From assembly GCA_002780175.1 (NCBI GenBank), contig PEVT01000008.1:1-37081 (forward strand): a DNA stretch of 37,081 nucleotides, in the 5' to 3' direction. Positions 2,314 to 32,181 of this stretch are shown piece by piece. The notes beneath the pieces are model-generated. The model was not told the DNA's origin, did no database searches, and saw only the letters and a list, made by a program, of their open reading frames with translations. This stretch comes from Candidatus Moranbacteria bacterium CG06_land_8_20_14_3_00_40_12 (lineage in GTDB: Bacteria; Patescibacteriota; Minisyncoccia; Moranbacterales; UBA2206). The number at the start of each line of letters is the position of its first letter. The first letter of the stretch is position 1. The translations under genes were made by a program, and so were the position numbers.

Positions 2314-4476
2314 GTGAAGAGGAGGGCAAAAATTTTATTTTTTTTGTTTTTAATCCTGCTTTTTTTGGGAGGATTTTTTGGTTTTAGAAAAAATGTTTTG
2401 GCTAGTGATGCTTGCAATAATCATATTATAATCAGCGAAATTTATGGCGGAGGGGGAAATAGTGGCGCTACTTATAAAAATGACTTCATTGAATTATATA
2501 ATCCTACAACATCGGATATTGTTATTGATGGTTGGTCGGTGCAATACAACACTTCAGCATCTTCTGGAAACTTTTTAATTACAAAGTTAGATACAAAACT
2601 AGAGAATAATATTATAAAAGCTGGCGAATATTATTTAATTCAAGAGGCAAGTGGTAGTAGCGGCGTTGATTTACCAACAACCGATGCCAAGGGCAATATA
2701 GCTATGTCAGCAACTGCTGGAAAAGTTGCATTAGTTGATAACGCAGAAAAGATATCTACTATGAACGATGAAAATGTTGTGGATTTTGTCGGATATGGAG
2801 GTGCGGCAAATGAATTCGAAGGATTAAAATCAGCTCCTTCTCCAAATAATACACAGAGTATAGCCAGAAAAAGCAGCGTCTGTTTGGACAGTAATAATAA
2901 TGGCACTGATTTTACCGCACAAGATCCAACCCCTGGTGGTGAAAATGAAAAAATAATACCCGTTTGCGTAGATAAAATTATTTTATCTGAAATATATCCT
3001 TTTACCGGTGAATTTGTAGAAGTGGAAAATATTGGAGCTGAAACATGCAATTTGGCTGGGTGGAAAATAAGTGATGAGAAAAATAGCCCGCATGCATTTC
3101 CCGTAAATTCCCCCATTGAACCCGGCGGATATGTTGCACTTATAAAGGATTTTAATTTAAATAGTACTAGTGCAGATTCGGCACAATTATTTAATCCGAC
3201 TAATAGCGAACCAGTTGAAATTCGTTCGTATAAAACCCCCGAAAATAATAAATCCTATAGCAATGAAAAATCTGATGTGTGGAAATGGACATCTAAATCA
3301 ACATCTGGATTGGAAAATGTTTTCGATGAAGAAACGCCACCAACCATACCACCAAAAGACAATGATTACGCTGGAAAAATAAAAATCAATGAGGTTTTTC
3401 CTGCGCCAAAAGACAAAAATGCCGGCAAAGAATTTGTGGAAATAATCAATATTTCCAACGAGAATATTAACCTTTCTGGAATGCGGATTGAAGATGAAAA
3501 AAATCATAAAGTTTATTTTACTGAAAAAATATTAGCGCCAGGAGAAATAACTTATCTCGAAGGAAATTTTGAATTGAATAATACTACTCCGGATACAGCT
3601 TTTTTAATTGATAAAGATGGCATTAAAGAAAACTCTATAGATTCAGTGACCTATGAAAAGTCCCAATATGATTACGCCTATGCTTTTGACGGCACAACTT
3701 GGCGCTGGAACAATCTGTTAACGCCTGGCGAAAAAAATGAATTCGAAAAAAAATTGAAAGTATCTATCGTTAAAATTAAGGCCAATCCCAAGGGAAAAGA
3801 CGCTGATTTGGAAGAAGTTTATCTCCAAAATAAATCCCAGAAAAAAATCAATTTGAAAACTTGGAGTCTTGCCACCGGTTCCAAAACTTTATACAATCAT
3901 CCAATCACGAAAAATTTTATCCTTAAGCCGGGAAAAACGAAAAAAATCACTCGCAAATATTCGCTTTTTACTTTGAACAATAAAAAAGGCGCCATTGAAC
4001 TGCGTTATCCCAACGGCGCGGTGGCTTCCCGTGTCAAATACGATAAGAAAAAGGAGTCCGTCAAAGACGATGAGGTTTATGAGCTCTCCGGAAAAGATTG
4101 GCAATGGAACGCCCCCGTTGAAGAAATTCCGCAAGAAGAAACCGCCCGGATGGAAAATATTTCTCCTTCTGAAGAAAATCCGGAAAATATTAATCCAGAA
4201 ATTGCACCAGAAATATCCGAGGAAGAAATCACTCTTAACCTTGGAAAGTATTCGGCGGAAAATAAATTAGCTTTGGCGGAAATGGGATTTTTACCTGCTT
4301 CAGAAGATTTTCTCCAAAGCCGGGAAGCTCCAGGCGTAGTGCTGGGCGCTTTTTCTGCTCGCGCTGAAGTCCGCAAATCCATAGAAATAAAGTCAACTAC
4401 TGTTTGGCAAAGGGCTATGCAAAAAAGCAATCGGTTTTTTAATTTTTTAATCAATCGACTTGTAAATTTAATTTAA
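2314..4476 (+). CDS. Exported multi-lamin-tail-domain (LTD) protein
   Basis: N-terminal signal/TM; repeated LTD starts (IIISEIY..DFIELYN, IILSEIYP..EFVEVEN, IKINEVFP..EFVEIIN, ANPKG..EEVYLQN); acidic linker and VLG motif near the C-terminus. Confidence 0.85.
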   Translation: MKRRAKILFFLFLILLFLGGFFGFRKNVLASDACNNHIIISEIYGGGGNSGATYKNDFIELYNPTTSDIVIDGWSVQYNTSASSGNFLITKLDTKLENNIIKAGEYYLIQEASGSSGVDLPTTDAKGNIAMSATAGKVALVDNAEKISTMNDENVVDFVGYGGAANEFEGLKSAPSPNNTQSIARKSSVCLDSNNNGTDFTAQDPTPGGENEKIIPVCVDKIILSEIYPFTGEFVEVENIGAETCNLAGWKISDEKNSPHAFPVNSPIEPGGYVALIKDFNLNSTSADSAQLFNPTNSEPVEIRSYKTPENNKSYSNEKSDVWKWTSKSTSGLENVFDEETPPTIPPKDNDYAGKIKINEVFPAPKDKNAGKEFVEIINISNENINLSGMRIEDEKNHKVYFTEKILAPGEITYLEGNFELNNTTPDTAFLIDKDGIKENSIDSVTYEKSQYDYAYAFDGTTWRWNNLLTPGEKNEFEKKLKVSIVKIKANPKGKDADLEEVYLQNKSQKKINLKTWSLATGSKTLYNHPITKNFILKPGKTKKITRKYSLFTLNNKKGAIELRYPNGAVASRVKYDKKKESVKDDEVYELSGKDWQWNAPVEEIPQEETARMENISPSEENPENINPEIAPEISEEEITLNLGKYSAENKLALAEMGFLPASEDFLQSREAPGVVLGAFSARAEVRKSIEIKSTTVWQRAMQKSNRFFNFLINRLVNLI

Positions 4477-4635: not shown

Positions 4636-5358
4636 ATGTCCGGACATTCTCATTGGGCTGGGATCAAGCATCGCAAGGGAATCAATGACGCCAAAAAGGG
4701 CCAGATTTTTACCAAGCACGGAAAATTAATTTCCATCGCGGCGAAAAATGGCGGTAGCGGCGATCCGGATTCTAATTTCCAGTTACGGCTGGCGATTGAA
4801 AGAGCGCGTCAAGATAATATGCCCAAAGAAAATATTGAAAAAGCTATCAAAAGAGGTACCGGCGAAATCAAGGGTCAATCTGAAATTCAGGAAATTATTT
4901 ATGAAGGCTACGGTCCGGGACAAGTCGCCTTGCTCATTAAAACCGCCACGGACAATAAAAATCGCGCTTTAGGAGAGATCCGCACGATTTTAATGAAAGC
5001 CGGCGGTAAATTGGTGCCGGCAGGTTCGGTAAGTTTTCTGTTTAACTTAGTCGGTGGCCTGGAAATAGCCATTGAGGATGAAAAGAAGGCTCCGGAAATG
5101 GAAATGAAAATTATTGAAGCCGGAGCGGATGATATGGAACGGCTGGAAAACAGCTTTTTAGCCATAACCGGGGCTTCTGAACTGCAAAGAGTTAAATATC
5201 TTTTGGAAAAAAATAGCTTAAAAATTGAAGGCGGCGGTTTAATATATCTGCCCCGGCAAAAAATTCAACTTAACGAAAAAGATCAAGCCGCTTACGAAAA
5301 ACTTCTGGAAGAACTGGATAATCAGGAAGATGTGCAAGAAATATATGACAATTTGTAA
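4636..5358 (+). CDS. yebC: YebC/PmpR family protein
   Basis: MSGHSHWAGIKHRKG, YEGYGPG, TDNKNR, DVQEIYDN; adjacent to ruvC. Confidence 0.95.
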   Translation: MSGHSHWAGIKHRKGINDAKKGQIFTKHGKLISIAAKNGGSGDPDSNFQLRLAIERARQDNMPKENIEKAIKRGTGEIKGQSEIQEIIYEGYGPGQVALLIKTATDNKNRALGEIRTILMKAGGKLVPAGSVSFLFNLVGGLEIAIEDEKKAPEMEMKIIEAGADDMERLENSFLAITGASELQRVKYLLEKNSLKIEGGGLIYLPRQKIQLNEKDQAAYEKLLEELDNQEDVQEIYDNL

Positions 5359-5521: not shown

Positions 5522-6025
5522 ATGAAAGAAAAAATCAAAACATACCCCGCTAAAACACTCCGAGTTATCGGCATCGATCCCGGCACCGCCACGACCGGCT
5601 GGGCGGTAGTGGAAAAAAGACAGGATCGGCTTTTTCCTCTGGGCTTTGGTTTTATCCAGACCGCCAAAGAGAAGACTGAATCGGAAAGACTCCTGGAAAT
5701 CAGCCTGGATTTAGAAAAAATCATTGATAAATTCCAGCCGCAAGAATCGGCGACCGAAAGAATTTTCTTGTTTAAAAATCAAAAAACCGTCATTCAGATT
5801 GGACAGGCCAGAGGAGCGATCTTATTGACTTTAGAGAAAAAAAACGTTAAGCTTTGGAGTTATACTCCGCTCCAAATCAAGCAAGCGGTAACCGGCTACG
5901 GCAGAGCGGAAAAAAAACAAGTTCAATTTATGGTGAAAAAAATCCTTAATCTAAAGTCCACGCCCAAGCCGGACGATGTGGCCGATGCTTTAGCTATCGC
6001 CATCTGCCATCTCAATAATCGCTAA
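5522..6025 (+). CDS. ruvC: Crossover junction endodeoxyribonuclease RuvC
   Basis: IGIDPGTATTGW, ERIF, GQARG, KQAVTGYGRAEK, PDDVADALAIAICH. Confidence 0.97.
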   Translation: MKEKIKTYPAKTLRVIGIDPGTATTGWAVVEKRQDRLFPLGFGFIQTAKEKTESERLLEISLDLEKIIDKFQPQESATERIFLFKNQKTVIQIGQARGAILLTLEKKNVKLWSYTPLQIKQAVTGYGRAEKKQVQFMVKKILNLKSTPKPDDVADALAIAICHLNNR

Positions 6026-6060: not shown

Positions 6061-6717
6061 ATGGAAAACGACATTCATCCTATTATCAGCTTTTTTATCC
6101 GGGAAGGCGTGCCCCTGAAAACGGTTATTCTGATTTTAATGCTGCCGCTTATCGCCACCCTTATCGCTCTTTTGCGGCAAGTCTTTGGCGTCAAGGCTTT
6201 TGGAATTTACACGCCCCTCATTATCACTTTCGCTTTTTTAGCCACTAATGGCATCCGTTATGGCATTTTCATCTTCGTGGCCGTAATATTGTCCGGAATG
6301 ATTATGCGCTTCGTATTGAAACCTTTCCGCCTGCTCTATCTGCCTCGCGTCGCCATCATGATTTCCGTCGTAGCCATGGTGATCTTAATTATGCTTACTT
6401 TGGGGGGTAGTTTAAAAAGAACAGGACTGGCCGCGGTTTCTATTTTCCCAATCCTTATTATGATCACCTTAGTGGAAAAATTCATTGCTGTCCAAATCGA
6501 AAAAGGCAATAAGATCGCTTTCAAATTGGCCTTGGAAACTTTAGTCATTTCGATTGCCGGCTACTATCTGGCCAGCTGGGAATTCTTGATAAAATTTCTG
6601 GCAATCTATCCCTGGACGATTCTTTTCACTTTGCCGATTAATGTGCTGTTAGGCAAGTGGACTGGATTGCGCGTCAGCGAATATTTAAGATTTCGAGAAA
6701 TAATCAAAAAATCTTAA
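6061..6717 (+). CDS. 7TM protein (7TM_transglut type, normally fused to an inactive transglutaminase), standalone
   Basis: LMLPLIATLIALLRQVFGVKAFGIYTP, LLYLPR, FPILIMITLVEK, LGKWTGLRVSEYLRF; sits next to an ATP-grasp gene. Confidence 0.85.
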   Translation: MENDIHPIISFFIREGVPLKTVILILMLPLIATLIALLRQVFGVKAFGIYTPLIITFAFLATNGIRYGIFIFVAVILSGMIMRFVLKPFRLLYLPRVAIMISVVAMVILIMLTLGGSLKRTGLAAVSIFPILIMITLVEKFIAVQIEKGNKIAFKLALETLVISIAGYYLASWEFLIKFLAIYPWTILFTLPINVLLGKWTGLRVSEYLRFREIIKKS

Positions 6718-6732
6718 TTTCTTTTTTGTTTT

Positions 6733-8217
6733 ATGTTTGAATTTTTCCAAAAAAGCCGTTCGGTGCTGGGAATGAATGCCCGCAATTTGGAGTTTATTCG
6801 CCCCCACAATCCCAAGCGCGCTAAGGAAATCGCCGACAACAAGTTGCTTTGCAAAAGCGTTTTGAAAAAGAATGGCATTTTTGTATCCGGGTTGATCGCC
6901 AAGATTAAAACGGCCACAGAGTTAGAGGCCTTTGATTGGCAAACCCTGCCCAATAGTTTTGCCCTCAAGCCTAACCGCGGTTTTGGCGGTGAAGGCATTA
7001 TCGTGGTTTACGGCAAGAAAAAACCTGCCCGCCCGTCTGCTTCGATGAGCGAAACACTGCGGGCAGGTAATGGCTTCGCCACAGGCGACGCGGGCGGGAA
7101 CCATAATGATGCCTGGATCAAAGCCGACGGATCTTTGATAACCATTGATGATTTGAAAAATCATATCCGCAATATTATTGACGGCTCTTTTTCGCTTTCT
7201 AATATTCCCGACATTGCTTTTTTTGAAGAACGGCTGCAACTGCTTAGATTTTTTAAGCCTTATACTTACAAAGGCATTCCGGATATCCGGGTGATTGTTT
7301 TTAACAAAGTTCCGGTGATGGCTATGTTGCGGCTGCCCACCAAGGAATCTTCCGGCAAAGCCAATCTCCAGCAAGGCGCCATCGGCGCCGGCATTGATAT
7401 GTCTTCCGGCACTACCACGACCGCCATCCAAGGCAAAAGTGGATTTATCGACACCGTTCCCGGAACCAGACTGCTTTTAAGCGGTCTCAAGATTCCCTAT
7501 TGGAAAGATATTCTGACCTTATCCGTTAAAGCCCAAGAAGTTTCCGGTTTGGGTTTTTTAGGCGTGGATATCGCCATTGATAAAGAAAGAGGTCCGATAA
7601 TTTTGGAAATTAACGCCTACCCCGGTCTCTCTATCCAACTTTGCAATAAAACCGGCCTCAAGGAGCGCCTGGAGCGTGTGAGGGGCCTTCAGATAAAAAC
7701 TGTCGAAAAGGGCGTGCGCGTCGGCATGGAACTTTTTGGAGGAGAAATTGAGGAAGAAATGGAAAATATTTCCGGCAAAAAAATAGTCGGGTCTTCGGAA
7801 AAGATAAAATTTACGCTCCCGGACGGAAAAGAAATCGAAGTTTTGGCCAAAATCGATACCGGAGCCTATTCGACCTCCATAGATATAGAATTAGCCAAAC
7901 AATTGGGTTTTGGACCAACTCTGGAAAGTTTTTCTCAAATTGACCTTTCCGCCTATAAGCTTCTACCGGAAAATGAAAGCTTGATAAAAAAAGATTTTTT
8001 GGAAAAACATAAGGAAAAAATTCCTTTCTTGGAAGATGTGGCGGTTATTTTTTCTTCCAGTGGTTCTTCGCTTAGGCCGGTAGTAAAAATAGAATTTAAA
8101 TTGGACAATGAAATTGTTTCTTCTTCAGCCAACATTACTGATCGGAAAAACTTGAAATATCCAGTCATCGTCGGTAAAAAAGATCTAAGAAAATTTTTAA
8201 TTGATGTGAACAAATGA
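6733..8217 (+). CDS. Alpha-L-glutamate ligase-like ATP-grasp fused to a C-terminal RimB-like retropepsin (DTG) protease
   Basis: LGMNARN, DNKL, KPNRGFGGEGI, PDIRVIV, AMLRLPT, ANLQQGA, GVDI, LEINAYPGLSIQ; then AKIDTGAYSTSID...RPVV...DR..LKYPVIVGK. Confidence 0.88.
   Translation: MFEFFQKSRSVLGMNARNLEFIRPHNPKRAKEIADNKLLCKSVLKKNGIFVSGLIAKIKTATELEAFDWQTLPNSFALKPNRGFGGEGIIVVYGKKKPARPSASMSETLRAGNGFATGDAGGNHNDAWIKADGSLITIDDLKNHIRNIIDGSFSLSNIPDIAFFEERLQLLRFFKPYTYKGIPDIRVIVFNKVPVMAMLRLPTKESSGKANLQQGAIGAGIDMSSGTTTTAIQGKSGFIDTVPGTRLLLSGLKIPYWKDILTLSVKAQEVSGLGFLGVDIAIDKERGPIILEINAYPGLSIQLCNKTGLKERLERVRGLQIKTVEKGVRVGMELFGGEIEEEMENISGKKIVGSSEKIKFTLPDGKEIEVLAKIDTGAYSTSIDIELAKQLGFGPTLESFSQIDLSAYKLLPENESLIKKDFLEKHKEKIPFLEDVAVIFSSSGSSLRPVVKIEFKLDNEIVSSSANITDRKNLKYPVIVGKKDLRKFLIDVNK
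7024..7098. repeat. In-frame 75-bp palindromic insertion in the ATP-grasp gene
   Basis: CCTGCCCGC (7024) has two complementary partners, GCGGGCAGG (7059-7067) and GCGGGCGGG (7090-7098). GC-rich, exactly 25 codons (PARPSASMSETLRAGNGFATGDAGG). Confidence 0.75.
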
Positions 8218-9170
8218 AAAGAGTTTTAATTTTATTTGGAAAATGCAATTGGACTAAAAGCCGGCCTTTTGATAATCCGGATTATATGTATTCTTATGAA
8301 TATTTTTACGATCTTTGCAGAAAAAATGGAGTGCAAATGTATCGCGCTTCATATCAATGGTATGATTACAAAAAACATATCTTTAAATATGCCTGGATAT
8401 TCCAAAGCAAGGGCGCTAATTGGAAAAGAGTTTATAATATTAAACCGGATTTAATCTACGACAAAACAAAAGCAGGGCTTGAGGTATATCATAAAAAGGA
8501 GTTGGTAGCTAAAAATTATGATTTTATTAATGATTTAAATTTTACTCGAATCATTGATGATAAGTTTATCACTGGCACTCTCTTCAATAAGTGGAGTAAA
8601 AAAAGTTGGTTTATAAAAAATTCACTTGAACTTAAAAAAATTCTTAGATTTTTATCATCAGAAAAAATCGTTATCAAGCCCAATAGCGAAAGCGGGGGAA
8701 ATGACATTCAAATTGTTAATAAGAAAGTAGCCTTAAAAAAGGCAGTCATTGATAGAGAGTATCTGGTCCAAGAATTTATTGATTCTTCCGGAGGTGTTCC
8801 GGGAGTCAGTCATTCTATGCACGATCTACGGCTAGTTTGCGTCAATAAAAAAATTATCTATTGCTATATCCGAGAACCTAAACAGGGAAGCTATTTGGCC
8901 AATCTGGCTCAGGGAGGATCTTTGATTATTGTTCCTATCAAAAAACTACCCGCTTCCTTGCGGCCGATAGTGGCCTATGCTAGTGATATTTTTAAAATTT
9001 TCAATCCCCGGATTTATTCTATCGACTTTATGTTTGATGAAAAAAGAAAACCTTGGATAGTCGAACTAAATTCGATGCCAGGACTTTATTTTACTCCTCA
9101 AGAAAAACCCTATATGGTAAAAATGTATAAAGAACTTATAGAAGTGTTTAAAAAAAGACTTGGTGTATAG
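8214..9170 (+). CDS. Second ATP-grasp ligase (RimK/GshB/YheCD-like)
   Basis: DDK, VIKP..ESGG, LVQEFID, HDLRL, ANLAQGG, SIDF, IVELNSMPG; ATGA overlap with the previous gene. Confidence 0.85.
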   Translation: MKRVLILFGKCNWTKSRPFDNPDYMYSYEYFYDLCRKNGVQMYRASYQWYDYKKHIFKYAWIFQSKGANWKRVYNIKPDLIYDKTKAGLEVYHKKELVAKNYDFINDLNFTRIIDDKFITGTLFNKWSKKSWFIKNSLELKKILRFLSSEKIVIKPNSESGGNDIQIVNKKVALKKAVIDREYLVQEFIDSSGGVPGVSHSMHDLRLVCVNKKIIYCYIREPKQGSYLANLAQGGSLIIVPIKKLPASLRPIVAYASDIFKIFNPRIYSIDFMFDEKRKPWIVELNSMPGLYFTPQEKPYMVKMYKELIEVFKKRLGV

Positions 9171-9172
9171 TT

Positions 9173-9818
9173 ATGCCTAAAAAAAGACATCTAACAAAAA
9201 AAAATTATAAATGCTGATGATTGGGGATTATCGCCTCTTTTTAATAAAGGAATTTTCGAATTGGCCAAGAGAGGCGTTGTTACCAGCACAACCGTAATGA
9301 TTAGAAAAAAATTTATAGAATCCGAAAAGCTTCTTTCTCTTAAAAATATTTCCATTGGACTTCATTTAGATTTATCGGAAAAATCTTCTTTAAAAGAAGT
9401 TGAAAATCAGTTAAAATTATTTGAAAAAAAATTCAAAAAAACTCCCTCCCACTTAGACGGCCACCGGCATTGCCATTTGTCTAAAAATAATCTTCTGCTG
9501 GTTTTAAAAATAGCTAAAAAATATAACTTGCCCATAAGATCTCGATTTCTGAAAGATAGAAAAAAAATAAAGAAATTTTGTTTAAAAACTCCTGGAAGCT
9601 TTATTAGCTGGCACCCCGATCGCCTCTCTATTTTAAAAGAGCGTCTAGCTAAAATAAAAACGGCTGCCGCCGAATTAGTCTGCCATCCGGGTTATTACGA
9701 TAAAAAATCAACCTATCCTTACAATCAAAAAAGGAAAAAAGAATTAAACTTTCTAAAAAGTCGCCAATTTAATATTTTACTAAAAAAATTTAAACCTATT
9801 AATTATAATGAACTTTGA
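9173..9818 (+). pseudogene. YdjC/ChbG-family carbohydrate deacetylase, frameshifted at an A9 tract
   Basis: ATG 9173 reads MPKKRHLTKK and is out of frame. Removing one A from 9196-9204 joins it to IINADDWG...GLHLDL...SHLDGHRH...ELVCHPG. Confidence 0.8.
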
Positions 9819-11134
9819 AGTGCCTCAATTTGAAGCTAAAAAGCCAGATCTAGAATCCTTGGATGATGTTTGGTATGAAAGACTTAAAAATTTGGCTGCT
9901 TTCATGGATTTTGAATATCTGTCAGGCAATAAAGAAGTTAGAGAATTGGAAAAACAAAAATTTTTAAGCAACAAGGTTAAAAACCCAAGCCTTGATTATC
10001 CGGAGATTGAAAAAATGAACTTTGCGCAAAAAGAAAGCGGCCTGCTGGATTTAAAAAAAGATATCCTGCAAAATGAAAGAAATGAGACCTTAAAGCAAGT
10101 TTACCGCTGGAAAATAAACGAAAAATTAGCTGAGCTTCGAATGTTGACTGCAACAAAAAATGGAAACGATCATCGAGTTTCTCATTATTCGAGATTTATC
10201 TATGGAAGTCCGGAAAAAGAAATTTATAATTATACTCTTTCTCAAATTAAAAAAATTGTAGATGAAAAAATTCTAAGTTCTGATTTCGAAATAAAAGCGG
10301 CGGTGGTAAAAATTAAAGAAACTTTACTACAAAATCTATCTTCAGAAACTTCTATTAGCGCCGAGGATTTTAAATCCAAATCAACCATACTAGCAGGGGA
10401 AGAAACTATGTATGGAGCAGAAGAAATAAAAACGGCTTTTGAAGCTGCCCTAGAAAAATACTGCCTTTTCGGCTGGAAAATAGTCATAGAAAAAGAAAAA
10501 ACTGGAGGCATAAGTACGAGCCAAGAAAAAAAAAGAAGTTTCCATTCCAGAAGAAAGAAGACTAAAAAAACTCGATCTTTAATCATTAATTGAACATGAA
10601 ATTGGAACTCACGCATTACAAAGAGAGAATGGGGAGAGGTCAAAATTAAAATTATTAGGCTTGGGATTAGATAGATCCTTAAGAGGCGAGGAGGGAGTTG
10701 CTACCTATCGAGAACAAAGAATTTTGGGGATGGAAGATTTTGCCGGACTAGACGGACATCTGGCAATTTCTTTAGCTTCTGGAATAAATGGTAAAAAAAG
10801 AAATTTTAGAGAGGTTTTTGAAATATTAAAAGCTTTCTATTTCATCTCTTCCAAGAAAGAAAAGTCTGAAGCTTTAAAATCGGCGGTTAATTCGGCCTGG
10901 GATCAATGCGTGAGAACTTTTCGAGGAACAACCTGCCAAACCCCCGGGGCTTGTTTAACTCGGGACATTGTCTATCGGGAAGGAAATATTGGCATCTGGA
11001 ATGTGGCAAAAAATAATCCGGCAGAAATTAAAAGGTTTTCGATTGGTAAATATGATCCCGCTAATCCAAGACATATTTGGATTCTTGAGCAATTGGGCAT
11101 AACAGATTCTGATTTGGATTCGCTTGAGAGATAA
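9808..11134 (+). pseudogene. DUF1704/MATCAP-like zinc carboxypeptidase, disrupted
   Basis: Split into 9808-10593 and 10661-11134. Removing one A from A9 10526-10534 gives EVSIPEERRLKKLDL*SLIEHEIGTHALQRENG...GEEGVA...RTFRG...RDIVYREG. An in-frame TAA remains at 10580-10582. Confidence 0.8.
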
Positions 11135-11165
11135 AATTAATCTCACTCATAATCCTCTTTATTTG

Positions 11166-11182: not shown

Positions 11183-13726
11183 ATGCCCTATTATAACATT
11201 TTTTCACCGCAAAAATCTCCTAATTTAAGCCCTGGAAAACGTCGGGAGTTTAAATTAAACTTCCCTTGGAAAAAAATCGGCAAAATCTTCGGAATTCTTT
11301 TTATCGGCGGTTTTTTGTTTGTCGCCGGAGTTTTTTTATATTTTGCCAAAGATCTGCCCAGCCCCGGAAAAATCAATACTCGTTTTATCGCCGAATCCAC
11401 TAAAATTTACGACCGCACGGGAGATCACATTCTCTATGATATTCACGGGGAAGAGAAAAGAACGCTTATTCCTTTAAATGAAATTCCCGACAGCATCAAA
11501 TACGCCACGATCGTGCTGGAAGATCAGGATTTTTACAACCACTACGGCATAAAATTCTCTTCCATTGTCCGCGCCCTGCTAAAAGATATTTTGCGCCGGG
11601 GAGTGGCTCAAGGCGGATCAACCATCACGCAACAATTCATTAAAAATTCAGTTCTTTCGCCCGAAAGAACGCTCCCGAGAAAAATTAAAGAAGTGATTCT
11701 GTCTTTGGAATTGGAACAAAAATTTTCCAAAGACGAGATTTTGGGCATGTATCTCAATGAAATTCCTTACGGCTCCAACGCTTACGGCGTCGAGGCGGCC
11801 GCCCTCACTTTTTTCGGCAAGCATGCCCGCGAACTAACTCTGGACGAAGCCGCGCTTTTAGCTTCTCTCCCTCAAGCGCCGAGTTTTTATTCGCCTTTCG
11901 GCTCCCATCCGGAAGAATTAAAAACGCGCCAGGAATTCACCTTGAACAAACTGGCTTCTTTAGGCTATATCACCCCGGAAGAGGCGCGAGAAGCTGTGGC
12001 TGTCAATGTTTTAACTAAAATCAATCCGCAGCAGGAAAATATTTCCGCCCCCCATTTCGTGATGTATGTTAAAGAATATCTGGAAAAAAATTACGGCCAA
12101 GCCTTGATTGAAAAAGGCGGCTTGAATGTTTATACCACCCTGGATTGGGAAAAACAACACCTGGCCGAACAAGCCGTGTGGGAAGGCGCGGAAAAAAATA
12201 CCAAGAATTATAACGCATCCAACGCTTCCCTGGTCGCTATGGATCCCAAAAGCGGACAAATTTTGGCGATGGTGGGATCCAAAGATTATTTCGACAAAAC
12301 AATCGACGGTCAGGTTAATGTCGCTATCCGCGAACGCCAGCCCGGTTCTTCTTTCAAGCCCTATGTTTATCTCACCGCTTTTAAAAAAGGCTACACGCCG
12401 GAAACTATCCTCTGGGATGTCGACACGGATTTTGAAACCGGAGCTGATAAAAAATACAATCCCAAAAATTATGATGGAAAAAACCGCGGTCCGCTAAAAA
12501 TGAAAGAGGCGCTGGCCATGTCGCTTAATGTTCCCGCGGTTAAAACTCTTTATTTGGCCGGAATAAAAAATTCCCTGAATACGGCTAAATCCATGGGCAT
12601 AACCTCCTTAACCGATCCTAATCGGGTGGGACTTTCTTTGGTTTTAGGCGGCGGTGAGATAAAATTATTAGACCATGTTAACGCTTTTTCAACTTTAGCG
12701 ACTGGCGGAATCTACCGGGAAAAAACCGCCATTTTAAAAATTCAGAATTCCGCCGGCAATGTTCTGGAAGAATTTAAAGCCAATCCGGGAGAGAGAGTAG
12801 TTGAAGAAAAATACGTGGCCATGCTGGATTACATCCTTTCGACTAATGATTTGCGCAAGCCGGTTTTTGGAGAAAACAGCCCCTTAAAATTTGAAAATCG
12901 CCCGGTTGCCGTTAAAACCGGAACCACGAATGAATGGCGAGATGGCTGGACGGTTGGTTACACGCCCGCCCTAACTGTCGGCGTTTGGGCCGGCAATAAT
13001 GATAATTCCCCCATGGCGCAGGGTGCCGATGGAGTTTTTGTCGCCGCTCCCATTTTTCGCAATTTCATGGATCAAGCCCTGAAAAATTCCAATATAGAAT
13101 CTTTCCCTAAATACGAAAAGGAAGAAACCGGCAAGCCGATACTTGACGGCACGCTGGAAATGAATGAAAAAATCAAGGTTTGCGAGATTTCCGACGACAA
13201 ATATTGTTTGGCCACCGATGCTTGTCCGGAAAGCACGCGCAAGGAAAAAAAGTTTTTTACGGGGCACGATACCCTGTGGTATGTGAAAAAAGACGATCCC
13301 CGCGGAGATACGCCTAAAAATCCGGAAGATGATCCGCAATTTAAAAATTGGGAAAAGGCCGCGCAAAAATGGGCCCAAAAAGAAAAAGATTTTTCTGATT
13401 CTCAAGCGCCAAAAGATGATTGCGAAGAAAGCGATTTCAAGGATTATTTGCCTTCTGTCAAAATTACCCATCCGGATGACGATGAAACCATTACCAGCTC
13501 GCCTTTTTCCATTAAAGCTTCTCTGAAGGCCGGTTACGGGCTTAAAAGCGCCGTATTATACATAAACGGCTCCAAAAAAGATACCCAGGATTCTTCGGAT
13601 TTTAGCTATAGTTATTCCGTGCCGGATAGTCAAAAAAATACTGATCTGGAAATTAAAATAGAAGTTTTGGACAAAAACGGCAATTCTACTTCTTCGTCTA
13701 TAGAAGTCACCACTAATATTCTTTAA
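11183..13726 (+). CDS. Class A penicillin-binding protein (transglycosylase plus transpeptidase, C-terminal Ig-like domain)
   Basis: N-terminal TM; EDQDFYNHYG, GGSTITQQ, RKIKE; transpeptidase motifs SSFK, SLN, KTG. Confidence 0.95.
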   Translation: MPYYNIFSPQKSPNLSPGKRREFKLNFPWKKIGKIFGILFIGGFLFVAGVFLYFAKDLPSPGKINTRFIAESTKIYDRTGDHILYDIHGEEKRTLIPLNEIPDSIKYATIVLEDQDFYNHYGIKFSSIVRALLKDILRRGVAQGGSTITQQFIKNSVLSPERTLPRKIKEVILSLELEQKFSKDEILGMYLNEIPYGSNAYGVEAAALTFFGKHARELTLDEAALLASLPQAPSFYSPFGSHPEELKTRQEFTLNKLASLGYITPEEAREAVAVNVLTKINPQQENISAPHFVMYVKEYLEKNYGQALIEKGGLNVYTTLDWEKQHLAEQAVWEGAEKNTKNYNASNASLVAMDPKSGQILAMVGSKDYFDKTIDGQVNVAIRERQPGSSFKPYVYLTAFKKGYTPETILWDVDTDFETGADKKYNPKNYDGKNRGPLKMKEALAMSLNVPAVKTLYLAGIKNSLNTAKSMGITSLTDPNRVGLSLVLGGGEIKLLDHVNAFSTLATGGIYREKTAILKIQNSAGNVLEEFKANPGERVVEEKYVAMLDYILSTNDLRKPVFGENSPLKFENRPVAVKTGTTNEWRDGWTVGYTPALTVGVWAGNNDNSPMAQGADGVFVAAPIFRNFMDQALKNSNIESFPKYEKEETGKPILDGTLEMNEKIKVCEISDDKYCLATDACPESTRKEKKFFTGHDTLWYVKKDDPRGDTPKNPEDDPQFKNWEKAAQKWAQKEKDFSDSQAPKDDCEESDFKDYLPSVKITHPDDDETITSSPFSIKASLKAGYGLKSAVLYINGSKKDTQDSSDFSYSYSVPDSQKNTDLEIKIEVLDKNGNSTSSSIEVTTNIL

Positions 13727-13853: not shown

Positions 13854-13882
13854 AAAACCCGGCATTGAGCCGGGGTTTTTTT
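13854..13882. terminator. Intrinsic terminator, probably bidirectional, between convergent pbp and dciA
   Basis: aaaacccggc-attga-gccggggttttttt. Confidence 0.75.
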
Positions 13883-13890: not shown

Positions 13891-14175
13891 TTATTTAAAC
13901 TTAATTTCTTCTATTAAATTCCCGCCCAGCTTTTTGTTGATTTTTTTAATAATCTCTTTTTGCGTCAGTCGCAATTCGGAGGCCCAAGCCGAACTGGTAA
14001 ATTTTACAAAAATAGTTTTCTTTTGAAAATAATCCGGAATTAATTTATGAGCTCCTTGATTGCCGAACTCTTCCCTGATAACCTCGCGAAAAATATAAAA
14101 AGCGGTTTTTTCGTCTAAAACCGTTTTTTTAGGGAAAATATCTTTTTTTTGCAGAAGAACTCTTAGCGACTTCAT
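13891..14175 (-). CDS. dciA: DUF721/DciA-family helicase-loader-like protein
   Basis: 94 aa; IFVKFTSSAWASELRL...IIKKIN...IEEIKF pattern; downstream of dnaA-dnaN. Confidence 0.75.
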   Translation of the reverse strand: MKSLRVLLQKKDIFPKKTVLDEKTAFYIFREVIREEFGNQGAHKLIPDYFQKKTIFVKFTSSAWASELRLTQKEIIKKINKKLGGNLIEEIKFK

Positions 14176-15181: not shown

Positions 15182-16348
15182 TTAGTTTTTAATCGGCATA
15201 ATAATATAAATGTAATCTTCCCCGAGAGTTTCTTTTTCCATATTTACCTCTTTGAGCGCCGCCGGAGAAGAACCGCTGTTGATTAACAGGGCTATTCGCG
15301 GAGTATTTAAGGTGTTCAGGCCTTCCAGGAGATATTTGGAGTTAAAAATAATTTCTTGGGATGGTCCTGTTATTTCCAGCTTAAGCTCCGAGGAGTTTTC
15401 GCCTATTTCCACGCTTCTGGCTTCAAAAACAACTTTTTTTTCATCACTATTTATTTTTATGCCGACTTCTCCCGATCTTCCGGAGGTAAAAACACTGGCC
15501 ATTTTAACAACGCCTTGGATTAATTCTTTTTCTCCCTGAATTGTTGTTTTGAATTCTTTAGGAATAATATTTTTATATTCCGGATATTTTCCATTAATCA
15601 GGCGTGAAACAATTTTAATGCCTTCCAGGTCGAAAAAAATCTGGCTGTTTTCTATGGTTATCTTAATTGCGCCCTCTTCGGCTTCATTTTGAATAATTCG
15701 GGATAATTCCAGAAGCGTGGCGGAAGGAATAATAATATTATTTTTTGATTTAATAAACATTTCATAGGCTTCCTTGTTGATATTTTCATTGTTTAATTTT
15801 AACTGACTTTCAGCTAAACGGAAGCTGTCAGTAGCCGCTAAAAAAAATCCCTGCGGATTTAAAATCATATTAACACCAGTAAGCTCCTGCCGGGTTTCGT
15901 TGTAACCAACGCAGGTAATTATTTTAGTAATGGCTTTTTTAAAAATAAAACTGGGAATGTTAATTAAAAAATCAGAGGTTTTTTGCGGAATTAACGGGAA
16001 ATCATCGGCCGGCAAGCCTTTAATGGTGGCCTTAAAATACCCGCTTTTTATTTTTAAACTTTGATCAACCGCCTCCAGGGTGATATTATTCTCTCCTAAA
16101 GAAGGCAGATTAGCGATAAAATTTCCGATTAATTTGGCGGGGATGGTTATTTTTCCTTCTTTTTCTATTTTAGCGCTGATTTTAATTATTACTCCAATTT
16201 CCAAATTAGTCGCCGAGAGTTTAAATATTCCCTTTTCCGTTTCAAAGAGAATGTTATTTAAAATCGGCAAGGTGTTTTGTTTAGAAACCACTCTTTCTAA
16301 ATTAAAAATAGCCTTCTTGAATTTTTCCCGGGTGCAAATAAGTTTCAT
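15182..16348 (-). CDS. dnaN: DNA polymerase III beta sliding clamp
   Basis: TLPILNNI, ATNLE, ATDSFRL, SRLINGKYPEY, FNSKYL, IMP. Confidence 0.97.
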   Translation of the reverse strand: MKLICTREKFKKAIFNLERVVSKQNTLPILNNILFETEKGIFKLSATNLEIGVIIKISAKIEKEGKITIPAKLIGNFIANLPSLGENNITLEAVDQSLKIKSGYFKATIKGLPADDFPLIPQKTSDFLINIPSFIFKKAITKIITCVGYNETRQELTGVNMILNPQGFFLAATDSFRLAESQLKLNNENINKEAYEMFIKSKNNIIIPSATLLELSRIIQNEAEEGAIKITIENSQIFFDLEGIKIVSRLINGKYPEYKNIIPKEFKTTIQGEKELIQGVVKMASVFTSGRSGEVGIKINSDEKKVVFEARSVEIGENSSELKLEITGPSQEIIFNSKYLLEGLNTLNTPRIALLINSGSSPAALKEVNMEKETLGEDYIYIIMPIKN

Positions 16349-16602
16349 AAATATTAATTACTATTTTATTTAAATATATTTTTTTAATTATTATTTATTA
16401 GTTTTTTGTAAATAGTGGAAAAAAGCAACTAGGGTTTCATTTAAAACAAAAAATAAATAAATAAAGGGGGAATAATATATTTTTTAAAGAGGATTTTTTT
16501 AATAATATATTTTTTAGGAAAATAATTAACCGTTTAAATTTTAAAATGAGAGGGTTTTTGTCAGGGTTATTAAGTTTTTTTAAGAGATTTTTCCACAAAT
16601 TA
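16349..16602. other. Putative oriC/DUE between dnaA and dnaN
   Basis: Very AT-rich. DnaA-box-like TTTTCCACA at 16589-16597 and agtggaaaa at 16414-16422; 16-bp direct repeat at 16471-16486 and 16501-16516; TAA trio-like repeats on the - strand. Confidence 0.65.
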
Positions 16603-17979
16603 TCAACCAAGAGAATATAATTGTTTCTTTAAAATATCCATTTCTTTTATGAGTTTTTCGTTAAAAGTCAATTCTTTTTTTATTTTTTCAAAAGCGTAAA
16701 TAGCCGTAGTGTGATCTTTCCCTCCCAGACGCTCTCCGATTCCCGGATAAGAATAATTAAGCTCGCTTCTCATTAAATACATAACGATTTGGCGCGGCCG
16801 GACAATCTCTCTCTTGCGAATTTTTATCAATAAATCATCCGGCTTGATTTCATAAAAATCCGAAACAATCTTAATGATGTGCTTGTAAGTAATACTCCCC
16901 CTTTTACTGCTGGAAACTATTTCTGAAAGAAGCGCTGAAACGAATTTCAGGGTAATTTTTTCTTGAGTAAGCTGGGCGGAAGCGGAAACGCGATTTAGGG
17001 CTCCTTCTAACTCGCGGATATTGCTGGTAATATTGGAAGCGATAAATTCTAACGCCTCGTCTTCTATAATTAATCCTTCATTTAAAGCTTTTTTTCTTAA
17101 AATAGCCATGCGGGTTTCAAAATCAGCTTGGCCGATATCAGCAATCATCCCGCCTTCAAAACGGGAACGCAACCTTTCTTCCAAAGTGGGAATGGCCTTG
17201 GGCGGGCAATCACTGCTTAAAACAATCTGTTTGTTCAGCTGATAAAGAAAATTAAAGATATGGAAAAATTCTTCCTGGGTTTTCTCTTTTCCGGAAAGAA
17301 ACTGAATATCGTCAATGATTAGCAGATCAATTTTTTGATAAAGATCCTTAAACTCGCTCACCCTTTGATTTTTTATGGATTCAATTAAATCGCCGGTGAA
17401 TCTTTCCGAGGAAGTGTATCTTATTTTACAGTCCGGGTCTTTTTTAAACACTTCATTGCCGATAGATTGCAAGAGATGGGTTTTTCCCAGACCCACTCCT
17501 CCATAAATAAAAAGCGGGTTATAAATTTTTCCCAAGTTTTGGGAAACCACGTAGCAAGCGGCCCTGGCCAATTCGTTGCTTCCTCCGACGATAAAATTTT
17601 CAAAAGTGTATTTAGGATTAAGATTGTTTTTTTGATTGATGTCGAAATCTTTTAAAACGGTTTTTTGGGGAGACGGGACTTTGGGAGGAGGTAAAATAGC
17701 GTCTAATTTGTTTTCTTTAAAGCTGTTTTGATAGTTAGTAACAATAGAACAAGAAACTTCTTTGACATCGCTCTGAATATTGCGGAGCGCTCTAAGAATA
17801 TAGAGCTTATATTTGTTTTCCAGCCATTCTTTGGCAAAACCATTGGGAACTCCAATAAAAACCTTCCCGTCTTTATTGGATAAGATGGAAGTATTTTTAA
17901 ACCAAGTGATAAAATTAGCCTTAGAAATAGAAAGCTCTATTTCTCCCAGAACCGCTTGCCAAAGTTCTTCATTAGTCAT
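16603..17979 (-). CDS. dnaA: Chromosomal replication initiator DnaA
   Basis: LNPKYTFENF, NPLFIYGGVGLGKTHL, IDDIQF, RLRSRF, NIRELEGAL, RQIVMYL, DHTT. Confidence 0.99.
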   Translation of the reverse strand: MTNEELWQAVLGEIELSISKANFITWFKNTSILSNKDGKVFIGVPNGFAKEWLENKYKLYILRALRNIQSDVKEVSCSIVTNYQNSFKENKLDAILPPPKVPSPQKTVLKDFDINQKNNLNPKYTFENFIVGGSNELARAACYVVSQNLGKIYNPLFIYGGVGLGKTHLLQSIGNEVFKKDPDCKIRYTSSERFTGDLIESIKNQRVSEFKDLYQKIDLLIIDDIQFLSGKEKTQEEFFHIFNFLYQLNKQIVLSSDCPPKAIPTLEERLRSRFEGGMIADIGQADFETRMAILRKKALNEGLIIEDEALEFIASNITSNIRELEGALNRVSASAQLTQEKITLKFVSALLSEIVSSSKRGSITYKHIIKIVSDFYEIKPDDLLIKIRKREIVRPRQIVMYLMRSELNYSYPGIGERLGGKDHTTAIYAFEKIKKELTFNEKLIKEMDILKKQLYSLG

Positions 17980-18015
17980 ATGCGTTTTGTTTGAACCCCC
18001 TTTTACTGTTTAAGA

Positions 18016-18073
18016 AGTATAGCATAAAAAATAATTCACAGTCTAGAATGATTGGGGATAAAAATGTGGATAA
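18016..18073 (-). promoter_or_regulatory. dnaA promoter with a DnaA-box cluster
   Basis: TGcTATACT on the - strand at 18016-18024. Boxes: taattcaca 18032-18040, tggggataa 18053-18061, perfect TGTGGATAA 18065-18073. Confidence 0.7.
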
Positions 18074-18130
18074 ACTGTTTATTAAAAACAAAAAAACCAT
18101 TCTAAGTGTCTTTAAAAATCAAATTTTTAA

Positions 18131-18159
18131 TTGACTTAGTTTATGATAATTGATAAGAT
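18131..18159 (+). promoter_or_regulatory. rpmH promoter TTGACT-N17-TAAGAT (extended TG)
   Basis: TTGACT 18131-18136, TG 18151-18152, TAAGAT 18154-18159. Confidence 0.65.
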
Positions 18160-18204
18160 TTTAAATAGTTAGTTTAATTGGTAATTTTAAGGAAAACAAA
18201 TCCC

Positions 18205-18342
18205 ATGAGTCAAACCTATAAACCCAAAAAGTTGAAAAGAAAAAGAAAACATGGTTTTAAAAAAAGAAGTCAAACTAAAGACGGTCGCGAAGTAATGAAG
18301 CGCCGAAGAAGAAAGGGTCGGAAAAAAATCACCACGGTATAA
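18205..18342 (+). CDS. rpmH: 50S ribosomal protein L34 (not in the ORF track)
   Basis: Translated by hand: [45 protein letters not shown]. Confidence 0.96.
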
Positions 18343-18364
18343 ATCTGTTTAAAAATGCTTTTCA

Positions 18365-18778
18365 ATGCTCCCTTTTAACAACCGTTTATTTAAAAAAAGA
18401 GATTTCGCCAAAGTTCAGAAGATGGGCCGTTTTTTTAATTCCGACCAGATAAGCTTAAAAGTTTTAAAAAATGGCTTAGATGAAACCAGAATCGGTATTA
18501 TTGTCGGTAAAAAATTTTCCGTGAAAGCAGTAGAGCGAAACAATATGAAAAGAAAATTACGGGAAATTACCCGCCAGGAAATTAAGCAGATAAAAAAAGG
18601 CTGGGACGTGGTTATTATGGTTAAAGAAAGCCAAAATAAGGCAAGAACCAGCGAAACGTTAAAAGTAGCTATAAAAAAAATATTAAAAGAAGCCCAAATA
18701 ATTAATTACCTGTCTTCCGGCCCGCTCCGCCGAATCGAGGCGAGCAGGCAGGGCAAAAAAAAGAATGGTTATTTTTGA
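18365..18778 (+). CDS. rnpA: Ribonuclease P protein component with an extended C-terminus
   Basis: NRLFKKRDF, RIGIIVGKK, KAVERNNMKRKLRE; follows rpmH. Confidence 0.93.
   Translation: MLPFNNRLFKKRDFAKVQKMGRFFNSDQISLKVLKNGLDETRIGIIVGKKFSVKAVERNNMKRKLREITRQEIKQIKKGWDVVIMVKESQNKARTSETLKVAIKKILKEAQIINYLSSGPLRRIEASRQGKKKNGYF
18709..18752. repeat. Nested palindromic insertion at the 3' end of rnpA
   Basis: CCTGTCT...AGGCAGG arms around an inner gctccgcc/ggcgagc stem; a GC-rich patch in AT-rich sequence. Confidence 0.7.
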
Positions 18779-19544
18779 CCAATTTGTCTATATTCCCATC
18801 TATAATTTATTGGTTTTTGTGTATAATCTGCTTCCTTTTAAGGATTTCGGGGTAGCCATTATTGTAGTTACTTTGATAATCAAGTTTTTACTGATTCCTT
18901 TAAGCCGCAAGCAAATCGAATCCCAGAAGAAAATGACCGAATTACAACCTAAAATCAAAGAACTTCAGAAAAAATACAAAGATGACAAAGAAAAACAAAG
19001 TCGGGCGTTGATGGATCTTTATAAAACCCACAAATCCAATCCCTTTTCCGGCTGTTTGCCCATGATTGTCCAGCTGGTCTTTTTAATCGCTATTTATCGA
19101 GTTCTTTTTAATATTTCCCAGGCTAATTTAATGATAAATGGAAACATTCTTTATGATTTTATTAAAAATCCCGATCAAATAAACAAAATGTTTTTAGGTA
19201 TCATAGATCTTTCTACGGCGGTAAACCTGGGACACATCTCTTTTTCCGAAGCGCCAAAGATTATTTTAGTGCTTTTAGCGGCTCTTTCACAGTTTTTTCA
19301 GAGTAAAATGCTTATGGCTAAGCAAAAAACAGCTTCTAATTTTCCCAAGGATGATAAAATGGACTTTTCTCAAATAATGTCCAAACAAATGCTTTTTTTA
19401 GGACCGTTGCTGACTCTTTTTATCGGAGTGAAATTTCCCTCCGGCTTGGCTCTTTATTGGCTTGTTTCAACAATTTTTATGATTATTCAACAACATTTTT
19501 TGAAAAAAGAAAACGAAGCAATCCTTTTGCAAAAAGTTAAATAA
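18765..19544 (+). CDS. yidC: Membrane protein insertase YidC (short form)
   Basis: DFGVAII, LQPKIKELQKKYK, NPFSGCLP..VQ, GLALYW. Confidence 0.95.
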   Translation: MVIFDQFVYIPIYNLLVFVYNLLPFKDFGVAIIVVTLIIKFLLIPLSRKQIESQKKMTELQPKIKELQKKYKDDKEKQSRALMDLYKTHKSNPFSGCLPMIVQLVFLIAIYRVLFNISQANLMINGNILYDFIKNPDQINKMFLGIIDLSTAVNLGHISFSEAPKIILVLLAALSQFFQSKMLMAKQKTASNFPKDDKMDFSQIMSKQMLFLGPLLTLFIGVKFPSGLALYWLVSTIFMIIQQHFLKKENEAILLQKVK

Positions 19545-19559
19545 ACTATATTTTTTAAG

Positions 19560-27044: not shown

Positions 27045-27049
27045 ATAAA

Positions 27050-30863: not shown

Positions 30864-30866
30864 AAA

Positions 30867-31526: not shown

Positions 31527-31550
31527 AATTATTTGGATATTTTATGTGAA

Positions 31551-31680
31551 TGTCATCCCGAGCACCCGTTATACGGGCATAAACTCCGTCGAGGGATCTA
31601 CTTTAAAATTAGAATTAGATTGCCACAGTTGTTCCGAGGCGGAACTCCCTCGCCTGCCTGCCGGCAGGCAGGCAATGACA
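31551..31680. repeat. TGTCAT...ATGACA palindromic element with nested insertions
   Basis: tgtcatccc...gggatcta...tagattgc...gcaatgaca; contains gttccgaggcggaac and the perfect palindrome CCTGCCTGCCGGCAGGCAGG (31653-31672). Confidence 0.85.
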
Positions 31681-31688
31681 AAATTGAT

Positions 31689-32153: not shown

Positions 32154-32181
32154 AGTTTTTATTAAATAATAATACCAAGTA

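Follow-up and report, generated by a model that had tools for sequence, protein, structure and literature searches.

A membrane protein, a ligase-retropepsin fusion and two decayed hydrolase genes in a Moranbacteria genome: a candidate Patescibacteria form of the Rlo/Rim amidoligase-peptidase family

What does a genome-reduced bacterium make with a 7TM membrane protein, two ATP-grasp ligases, a retropepsin-like protease and two hydrolases encoded side by side, and does it still make it when some of these genes are broken? The question is raised by a stretch of 37,081 nucleotides (nt) of Candidatus Moranbacteria bacterium CG06_land_8_20_14_3_00_40_12 (contig PEVT01000008.1), here called the window, which carries at positions 6061-11134 of the plus strand a cluster of five closely packed reading frames, all running in the same direction. 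A first-pass annotation, made from the letters alone, had seen in them either a reversible C-terminal amino-acid tagging system or a membrane-exported peptide-polymer system, with the ligase/carboxypeptidase logic of the tubulin code. The answer that we favour, to which we give a probability of roughly 0.55, is that the cluster represents a Patescibacteria (Moranbacteria) form of the Rlo/Rim amidoligase-peptidase family, making and cutting acidic peptides at the membrane. Its core most likely consists of a 7TM module and one cytoplasmic ligase-retropepsin polypeptide, followed by a downstream cassette that is laterally exchanged. The kind of system is known (Rlo) but mechanistically unsolved; what is new here is the decay of a MATCAP-like and a YdjC gene beside a constrained core. 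The five frames are the following.

6061-6717, plus strand: 7TM protein of 218 amino acids (aa), RloB-like, without the transglutaminase-like domain
6733-8217, plus strand: fusion protein of 494 aa, with an RloC-like ATP-grasp ligase (about residues 1-340) and a RimB/RloA-like retropepsin domain (about residues 345-494)
8214-9170, plus strand: AG2, second ATP-grasp ligase, of RimK/LysX/GshB type, 318 aa
9173-9818, plus strand: island-type YdjC deacetylase gene with a disrupted 5' end (pseudogene or dependent on slippage)
9808-11134, plus strand: MATCAP-like metallocarboxypeptidase pseudogene (PF08014 / QEGLA-related), split into the frames 9808-10593 and 10661-11134

Only 15 nt separate the 7TM gene from the fusion gene, which overlaps AG2 by 4 nt (8214-8217); 2 nt lie between the AG2 stop codon and the ATG at 9173, and the YdjC and MATCAP-like frames overlap by 11 nt (9808-9818). 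A promoter and terminator scan of the cluster revealed no clear internal signals. The description of five tightly coupled genes therefore stands as regards packing and overlaps, but not as regards integrity, since the YdjC and MATCAP-like genes are interrupted by runs of nine A and a TAA codon. All five domain calls (7TM, ATP-grasp fused to a DTG protease, second ATP-grasp, YdjC and MATCAP-like) were upheld by Pfam and NCBIfam.

The 7TM protein matches the 7TM_transglut family (PF14402, E 1.6e-27, 97 bits). Against the RloB model NF052267 it covers only positions 312-507 of 508 and reaches 74.9 bits for a cut-off of 900; RloB is defined by a transglutaminase domain that is inactive and joined to the 7TM part, and the window protein corresponds to the 7TM half only. 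Its N-terminus is acidic and its conserved C-terminal tail (GKWTGLR-SEY-RFR-IIKK) is basic, with six Lys or Arg and two Asp or Glu among residues 199-218. By the positive-inside rule such a basic tail would be cytoplasmic, which makes it a plausible candidate docking site.

The ligase part of the fusion protein belongs to ATPgrasp_ST (PF14397, E 8.5e-62, 209 bits for a cut-off of 31.4), and the protease part matches Zn_protease (PF05618) on residues 384-493 (E 1.2e-10), with weak matches to RloA1-3 and RimB. The RloA equivalog models give 26-31 bits for cut-offs of 210-280; the DTGA motif and a K/R/R set are present and a signal peptide is absent. The C-terminal part of the fusion matches the RloA-type structures PDB 9g58/9g59. 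Two sites of the protein deserve attention.

7606-7620, plus strand: ATP-grasp Mg/ATP motif E292-I-N294-A-Y296, in which Tyr296 is unusual
7855-7866, plus strand: DTGA aspartic-protease motif, residues 375-378

Both active centres are conserved among the 53 orthologs compared. In the protease, none of the 53 departs from D375, G377 or A378, and residue 376 is Thr in 52 and Ser in one; in the ligase, all 53 likewise share D279, E292 and N294. Residue 296 (codon TAC, 7618-7620; context E-I-N-A-Y-P-G) is Tyr only in the window protein and Arg in 52 of the 53 orthologs as well as in all six of the closest database homologues, the same-genus genome G001 having a contig break exactly there. The N-terminal part of the ligase also carries, at 7024-7101 (fusion residues ~98-123), an insertion of ~25 residues (KKPARPSASMSETLRAGNGFATGDAGG...) that is missing in most of the 464-470-aa orthologs and kept in a few (for example P0012, and in shorter form P0002).

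The association of ATP-grasp, 7TM-transglutaminase and protease genes was reportedly first predicted by Iyer et al. in 2009. The trio, which the first-pass annotation took to be poorly characterised, now has a name, as 7TM_transglut, ATPgrasp_ST and PF05618 proteins make up the rloABC operon of Pseudomonas aeruginosa (Lormand et al., mBio 2025, PMC12239564). According to that report, the RloA proteases belong to the retropepsins, are secreted and cleave runs of at least 8 Glu, and their residues K46, R114 and R137 coordinate poly-Glu, the substitutions R114A and R137A having the strongest effect in vitro and failing in complementation (PMC12239564). The same source describes that deletion of rloB or rloC rescues a triple rloA protease mutant (PMC12239564), which implies that the ligase and the 7TM protein make something that the protease must process. 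It further reports osmotic, ampicillin and cell-shape phenotypes for Rlo mutants of P. aeruginosa, gives the product as still unknown, and places 96% of the RloB hits in Proteobacteria (PMC12239564). In the fusion protein, the poly-Glu contacts K46, R114 and R137 have their counterparts, by alignment, in K373, R448 and R471, of which R448 and R471 are invariant in 51 sequences; the retention of these residues supports the assignment of a RimB-type protease.

Like rloABC, the Moranbacteria locus brings together in one operon a 7TM_transglut protein, a ligase of ATPgrasp_ST/TIGR02291 type and a PF05618 retropepsin with the DTGA motif and the K/R/R set. In contrast with rloABC, the protease of this member of the candidate phyla radiation (CPR) forms the C-terminal part of the ligase polypeptide and lacks a signal peptide, whereas RloA is secreted; the 7TM protein is devoid of the inactive transglutaminase domain; the locus adds extra ligases and, in relatives, also YdjC and MATCAP-like genes; and the bacterium itself is monoderm-like. 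Our full-text literature searches found no description of a CPR variant of the Rlo system.

The core is conserved well beyond the window. A 7TM ortholog lies immediately upstream of the fusion gene in all of the 40 nearest relatives (38 by open reading frame (ORF) call and two by tblastn), so that co-occurrence in other genomes, the test by which the first-pass annotation was prepared to fall, came out in its favour. The order YebC-RuvC-7TM-fusion-(one to five genes)-PBP1A is kept in these 40 relatives, with YebC-RuvC-7TM-fusion synteny in most. Within a sample of the order, all 41 genomes contain a match to the fusion (37 of 37 among the high-quality ones), and this universal presence in a genome-reduced order argues for an important role. 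In a sample of the phylum, 98 of 301 genomes encode a fusion-like protein, its distribution by family being all-or-none. Of 8000 candidates scored in the protein database, 4457 match the fusion, and 115 of the 120 best matches carry both PF14397 and PF05618, the named ones being Moranbacteria or Patescibacteria. The fusion and AG2 are the only PF05618 and RimK-like genes of the window genome. Compared with G001, dN/dS is 0.038 for the 7TM gene, 0.055-0.061 for the fusion and 0.088 for AG2, as against 0.054-0.070 for the flanking YebC, RuvC and PBP1A genes; these are rough values, dS being above 1 in this comparison, and on them the 7TM and fusion pair appears to be under strong purifying selection.

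Downstream of this pair the locus turns variable. AG2, the first gene there in the window, has Pfam matches to PF14397 (2e-11), RimK (7.2e-10) and TTL (9.6e-10), and its structure model (predicted local distance difference test, pLDDT, 92.2) has the standard three-domain ATP-grasp architecture, with GshB, ArgX/LysX, RimK and Ddl as nearest folds (E 1e-13 to 1e-15, template-modelling (TM) score ~0.65). Its residues D271, E284 and N286, which form the D...E-x-N metal/ATP site, are invariant in 37 sequences. Membership of AG2 in the TTL family (PF03133) was ruled out, the Pfam TTL match being local (residues 267-309 only), and there is no TTL or TTLL structure among the fold matches listed for AG2. 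We scanned 104 of the 107 island ORFs found between the fusion and PBP1A in the 40 relatives, leaving out a 72-aa ORF, a 95-aa antisense ORF and a 548-aa ORF on the opposite strand. ATP-grasp ligases predominate (68 ORFs), and all 39 relatives that could be assessed have at least one after the fusion. The others are glycosyltransferases (five GT1 plus one weak, two GT2 and a weak GT8), five GNAT, three Mur-ligase-like, two YdjC and three MATCAP proteins, one DUF3541 protein plus a further DUF3541 domain fused to a ligase, one aminoacyl-tRNA synthetase and 12 ORFs of no family. At a threshold of at least 38% identity, 71 island ligases (the 68, two no-family ORFs added by BLAST similarity, and the AG2 of the window) fall into 15 clusters, of which the one containing AG2 is the largest (24 members at 22 loci). 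Lateral exchange of the cassette fits the low GC content of AG2 (0.33), YdjC (0.30) and the MATCAP-like gene (0.36), compared with 0.40 for the genome and 0.43-0.44 for flanking core genes. Directly before PBP1A, three relatives have island ORFs of 606-651 aa without Pfam family (L042 in G027, L050 in G004 and L065 in G031).

With RimK-RimB(-RimA), the Moranbacteria system shares a cytoplasmic ATP-grasp ligase and a cytoplasmic retropepsin of the kind that cuts poly-alpha-Glu, and both the fold of AG2 and its match to the RimK Pfam model point the same way. Unlike in that system, the membrane partner is never missing, a single polypeptide comprises ligase and protease, both ligases score far below the RimK equivalog cut-off (NF007764, 19 bits for 331), and ribosomal protein S6 of the window genome has no Glu tail.

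The last gene of the cluster connects it with an enzyme family better known from eukaryotes. MATCAP/TMCP enzymes are described as having HExxxH and EEG motifs, acting on protein C-termini and removing polyglutamylation (PMC10499314). In the window, the 157-aa fragment at 10661-11134 matches PF08014 with E 2.3e-5 and 24 bits, below the 27-bit cut-off, and TIGR02421 (QEGLA) matches with E 1.1e-10 on 183 aa; intact orthologs reach 93-102 bits with PF08014. The H, E, H and EG residues are invariant in 27 MATCAP-like homologues and align with the HEIGTH/EEG of human MATCAP, which was also the sole match of a profile of these 27 sequences against the PDB (E 4.4e-17). For the model of the intact ortholog of G121 (pLDDT 91.3), the five best Foldseek matches are chains of human MATCAP (E 4e-6 to 2e-5, TM score 0.49-0.58 on the target). 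The profile and structure searches that had been proposed as a check thus gave, for the predicted models, an ATP-grasp fold for AG2 and the fold of human MATCAP for the G121 ortholog. As with MATCAP/TMCP1 (KIAA0895L) and the TTL/TTLL ligases, HExxxH and EEG motifs, PF08014 and fold go together with pairing to ATP-grasp amino-acid ligases; unlike there, the proteins are bacterial, no tubulin is present, the TM score on the target is only that just given, and the ligases are of RimK/RloC and not TTL type.

Of 151 genomes of the order, 30 carry a QEGLA/MATCAP-like gene, in no case with a score that exceeds the TIGR02421 cut-off, and this model had no match in 14 control genomes. Among 29 relatives with such a gene, it lies in the island together with the fusion at the same locus in 19; in two more it stands at a contig edge, immediately ahead of PBP1A; in the remaining eight it is located elsewhere, in one case adjoining two ATP-grasp genes. 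It adjoins an island-type YdjC gene in seven relatives, and the order 7TM-fusion-ligase(s)-YdjC-MATCAP-like-PBP1A is intact in G121, G053, G074, G147 and G156. Island YdjC, found in 16 of 151 genomes, is a short subtype (~208-215 aa) without profile positions 65-100, and most genomes encode elsewhere a longer canonical YdjC, so that the order has two YdjC subtypes. Like the YdjC/ChbG carbohydrate deacetylases, the island protein has PF04794 and the conserved D-D and His residues; unlike them, it is short and distinct from the canonical paralogue, and the window copy has lost its start. A MATCAP-like gene accompanies island YdjC in nine of 16 genomes and occurs in 21 of 135 others, counts that are not phylogenetically independent. 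Finally, all three of the loci examined in other Patescibacteria families encode proteins of 784-800 aa in which the ligase is joined to a complete MATCAP domain (PF08014 E 3e-43 to 3e-47). Judging from these gene neighbourhoods and fusions, the linkage of ligases with MATCAP and YdjC is real although sporadic. The three ligase::MATCAP fusions (L109, L110 and L111) adjoin a 7TM_transglut protein in which an N-terminal PKD domain replaces the transglutaminase-like domain. The window genome (G000) also has, on contig C15 (892-1542), an intact canonical long YdjC of 243 aa.

From the identities of these genes, their conservation, the selection on them and the joining of ligases with MATCAP domains we infer a product chemistry, a role for the 7TM protein and an order of steps. 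On the inner side of the membrane, the fusion ligase would build a Glu-rich, acidic chain with alpha linkages, as a free peptide or attached to a carrier, and the fusion's own retropepsin domain, which would have to dimerise, would cut this chain internally. AG2, like the other cassette ligases, would append one or more further residues, and the 7TM protein would anchor the enzyme or hand on the product in the direction of the envelope. Where relatives have the MATCAP-like enzyme, it would then trim the chain from the C-terminal end.

In the window genome this last step appears to be gone. The sites concerned are listed here.

9196-9204, plus strand: run of nine A (A9) in the YdjC gene; eight A (A8) would put the ATG at 9173 in the YdjC frame
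10526-10534, plus strand: A9 run that shifts the reading frame of the MATCAP-like gene; with A8 the frame reads ...SQEKKEVSIP... (homologues ...SQDKKEVFIP...)
10580-10582, plus strand: in-frame TAA in the MATCAP-like gene, four codons before the HEIGTH codons
10595-10612, plus strand: HEIGTH (HExxxH) metal-binding motif, with the third-ligand motif GEEG at 10685-10696

The YdjC identity is clear on the frame 9261-9818 (PF04794, E 2.5e-23, 83.7 bits; chitin disaccharide deacetylase model NF002559, E 1e-28, below its cut-off), and the window copy keeps all invariant Asp and His residues. Its 5' end is another matter: intact 208-aa island orthologs, as in G027 and G011, start M-[RK]-K-L-[IT]-I-[NT]-A-D-D, and the window frame reads TAA-Q-K-K-I-I-N-A-D-D. 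In this frame (IINADDWG), the TAA at 9192-9194 stands where homologues have Met, and no ATG, GTG or TTG follows before the TTG at 9261, already past the D-D motif. The sole ATG, at 9173, is in a different frame that stops after 14 codons. As for the MATCAP-like gene, its two frames (261 aa from 9808 and 157 aa from 10661) line up in order with the intact homologues of 434-461 aa only if a frameshift and a stop are bridged. The latter, the TAA at 10580-10582, could have arisen by a single base change from AAA or CAA, since homologues have Ala, Lys, Gln or Arg at this position. The catalytic motifs of both proteins being all retained, inactivation looks recent, and on the reading frames it looks to have proceeded by A8-to-A9 slippage in both genes, plus the nonsense codon in the MATCAP-like one.

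Might all five genes work after all, the A9 runs being either errors of sequencing or assembly, or frameshifts rescued by transcriptional slippage? Both frameshifts do lie in A9 runs, the same change from A9 to A8 mends both, and the catalytic motifs are intact; moreover, polymerase slippage rescues poly-A frameshifts in reduced endosymbiont genomes. Slippage cannot mend the TAA at 10580-10582, however, and Logan contigs from three further samples of groundwater or aquifer (X12, X13 and X14) show 0 differences and 0 gaps over 9100-10970 with all lesions identical, a comparison of contigs at a depth of ~4-7 that is blind to minority alleles and in which some runs lack cover of the final 160 bases of the MATCAP-like gene. 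The lesions thus belong to the organism and are not an artefact of one assembly. In addition, G001 has neither gene and, in the interval from AG2 to PBP1A, only a GNAT fragment, as would fit a loss in this lineage, and MATCAP-like genes are interrupted also in G160 and G092. We consider five functional genes very unlikely. A reversible switch, in which the poly-A tracts would turn the trimming and deacetylating arm on and off within the population, appears just as improbable to us. Runs of at least nine A or T number 40 in the 815-kb genome (4.9 per 100 kb; 460 of at least eight), and two of these 40 lie within the same 1.4 kb, in the two accessory genes and in one case just after a start codon, which speaks for such a switch. 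Yet no length variant is seen across the four assemblies (minor alleles being hidden in contigs), the nonsense codon would make a switch of the MATCAP-like gene pointless, and at the corresponding MATCAP-like site the A-runs measure at most 7 in 13 intact orthologs (those among 22 orthologs for which the motif could be located). Judged by its reading frames, then, the carboxypeptidase arm is dead in the window genome, though the link between ligase and peptidase is real. For the writer/eraser system with tubulin-code-like logic of the first-pass annotation, this means that the ligase-MATCAP linkage (within the island in 19 of the 29 relatives with a MATCAP-like gene, fusion at three of three loci, and a family that the MATCAP/TMCP report presents as deglutamylases, PMC10499314) speaks in its favour, while in this genome the eraser and YdjC are inactivated, so that the five-gene set does not work here in the way that was proposed. 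Under our reading, the window genome would retain only the ligases and the endopeptidase, having lost the exopeptidase arm and YdjC.

Several points weigh against the reading of the cluster as a Rlo/Rim relative that makes acidic peptides. With TIGR02291 the fusion ligase gives E 2.1e-76, yet its 256.9 bits fall below the hypothetical-equivalog cut-off of 314.2; by these scores it is a member of the RloC-type family and not an equivalog. Its activity may be altered by Tyr296, whose codon lies outside the Logan comparison. With a 7TM protein that lacks the RloB transglutaminase-like domain and a protease that lacks a signal peptide, the compartment logic is unlike that of Rlo. No obvious Glu-ended acceptor is apparent: S6 of the window genome ends ...KELLNI, and a Glu end is found in 0 of 54 Moranbacterales 7TM tails, which end ...RFREIIKK[S/M/L]. 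To this come the rough selection estimates and the limited depth of the Logan contigs; the product, acceptor and activity of the CPR members are all predictions from sequence; and the glycosyltransferases, GNATs, Mur-type ligases and sugar deacetylase of the islands fit a sugar- or wall-linked product about equally. The last point leads to envelope tailoring, in which the ligases, instead of building a free peptide, would amidate a wall precursor or glycopolymer (for example with side-chain amino acids on the peptidoglycan stem peptide or on an amino-sugar freed by YdjC), the 7TM protein would act as scaffold or flippase, and the MATCAP-like enzyme would trim the stem. Besides the GT1, GT2, GNAT, Mur-ligase-like and YdjC genes among the 104 scanned ORFs, it has in its favour that the island always ends at a class A penicillin-binding protein where contigs of relatives reach that far, and it agrees with the name of PF14397 (sugar-transfer associated ATP-grasp), with AG2 fold matches to Ddl and GshB as well as RimK, and with the reported osmotic, ampicillin and cell-shape phenotypes of P. 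aeruginosa Rlo mutants (PMC12239564). We regard it as unlikely on balance: YebC and RuvC are equally syntenic upstream, so that adjacency to PBP1A may be mere conservation of gene order; the accessory genes vary between genomes whereas the wall is universal; the retropepsin retains its poly-Glu-binding K/R/R set; and in other lineages the ligase is fused to a protein or peptide carboxypeptidase family. Less probable still is the reversible C-terminal tagging of a single protein, be it S6 in the manner of RimK or the tail of the 7TM protein itself. RimK is reported to add Glu to S6 and RimB to remove it (PMC12239564), MATCAP enzymes are described as working on protein C-termini (PMC10499314), and ligase::MATCAP fusions exist; but the S6 end, the RimK equivalog score far below its cut-off and the 54 tails without terminal Glu all speak against it, and S6 as the target, the example given in the first-pass annotation, finds no support.

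If the cluster is indeed a CPR form of the Rlo/Rim family, it is a simpler one, with a bare 7TM protein and a single ligase-protease polypeptide, and may be easier to reconstitute than Rlo, a system that is reported to bear on osmotic tolerance, antibiotic sensitivity, biofilm and cell shape in Pseudomonas (PMC12239564). The recurrent linkage and fusion of ligases with MATCAP domains provides a bacterial context for a human enzyme family and a testable class of substrates, namely acidic tails made by ligases. In the window genome, the carboxypeptidase and YdjC arms would have been dispensable, lost by homopolymer slippage while the core remained strongly selected. A bolder and rather doubtful extension is that many Patescibacteria run a membrane-associated 'amino-acid tail code', in which RloC-type and accessory ATP-grasp ligases would write a variable acidic chain, the retropepsin would cut inside it and a MATCAP-type enzyme would trim its end. 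The tubulin-trimming family would then have begun as the partner of bacterial RimK-like ligases, and the window would be a natural knock-out in progress, for which Arg296Tyr may compensate.

The cluster is embedded in a run of plus-strand frames extending from ruvB (442-1497) to PBP1A, in the order RuvB, lamin-tail domain (LTD) protein, YebC, RuvC, cluster and PBP1A, ~4 kb from dnaN-dnaA. Its conserved neighbours are these.

4636-5358, plus strand: YebC, conserved upstream neighbour, beyond RuvC
5522-6025, plus strand: RuvC (PF02075), upstream neighbour of the cluster, conserved in relatives
11183-13726, plus strand: class A penicillin-binding protein PBP1A (PF00912 and PF00905), downstream boundary of the variable island

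Wherever the contig of a relative extends far enough, PBP1A is found downstream of the island; in the window, the promoter and terminator scan placed a promoter-like site before it (11124-11153), and a terminator-like hairpin follows it (13858-13874). The LTD protein (2314-4476, 720 aa) has repeated lamin-tail domains (PF00932, E 1.1e-50) and a hydrophobic N-terminal segment. Beyond PBP1A lie DciA (13891-14175) and a replication-origin neighbourhood (15182-20036) with dnaN (15182-16348) and dnaA (16603-17979) on the minus strand, a gap of 385 nt and, on the plus strand beyond it, rnpA, yidC and an R3H/Jag-like gene. Polysaccharide genes follow at 20042-25532, encoding a Polysacc_synt flippase, two GT2 glycosyltransferases and two tandem Wzy_C proteins (O-antigen-ligase-like); the third run of at least nine A or T in the window (24543-24551) lies within the second Wzy_C frame, which it leaves unbroken. 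The window ends with a run of nine genes on the minus strand (25905-36808), a possible type IV secretion or pilus-like block, of which eight are without Pfam match at E 1e-10, the exception being a TraG/VirB4-like P-loop ATPase (32288-34177).

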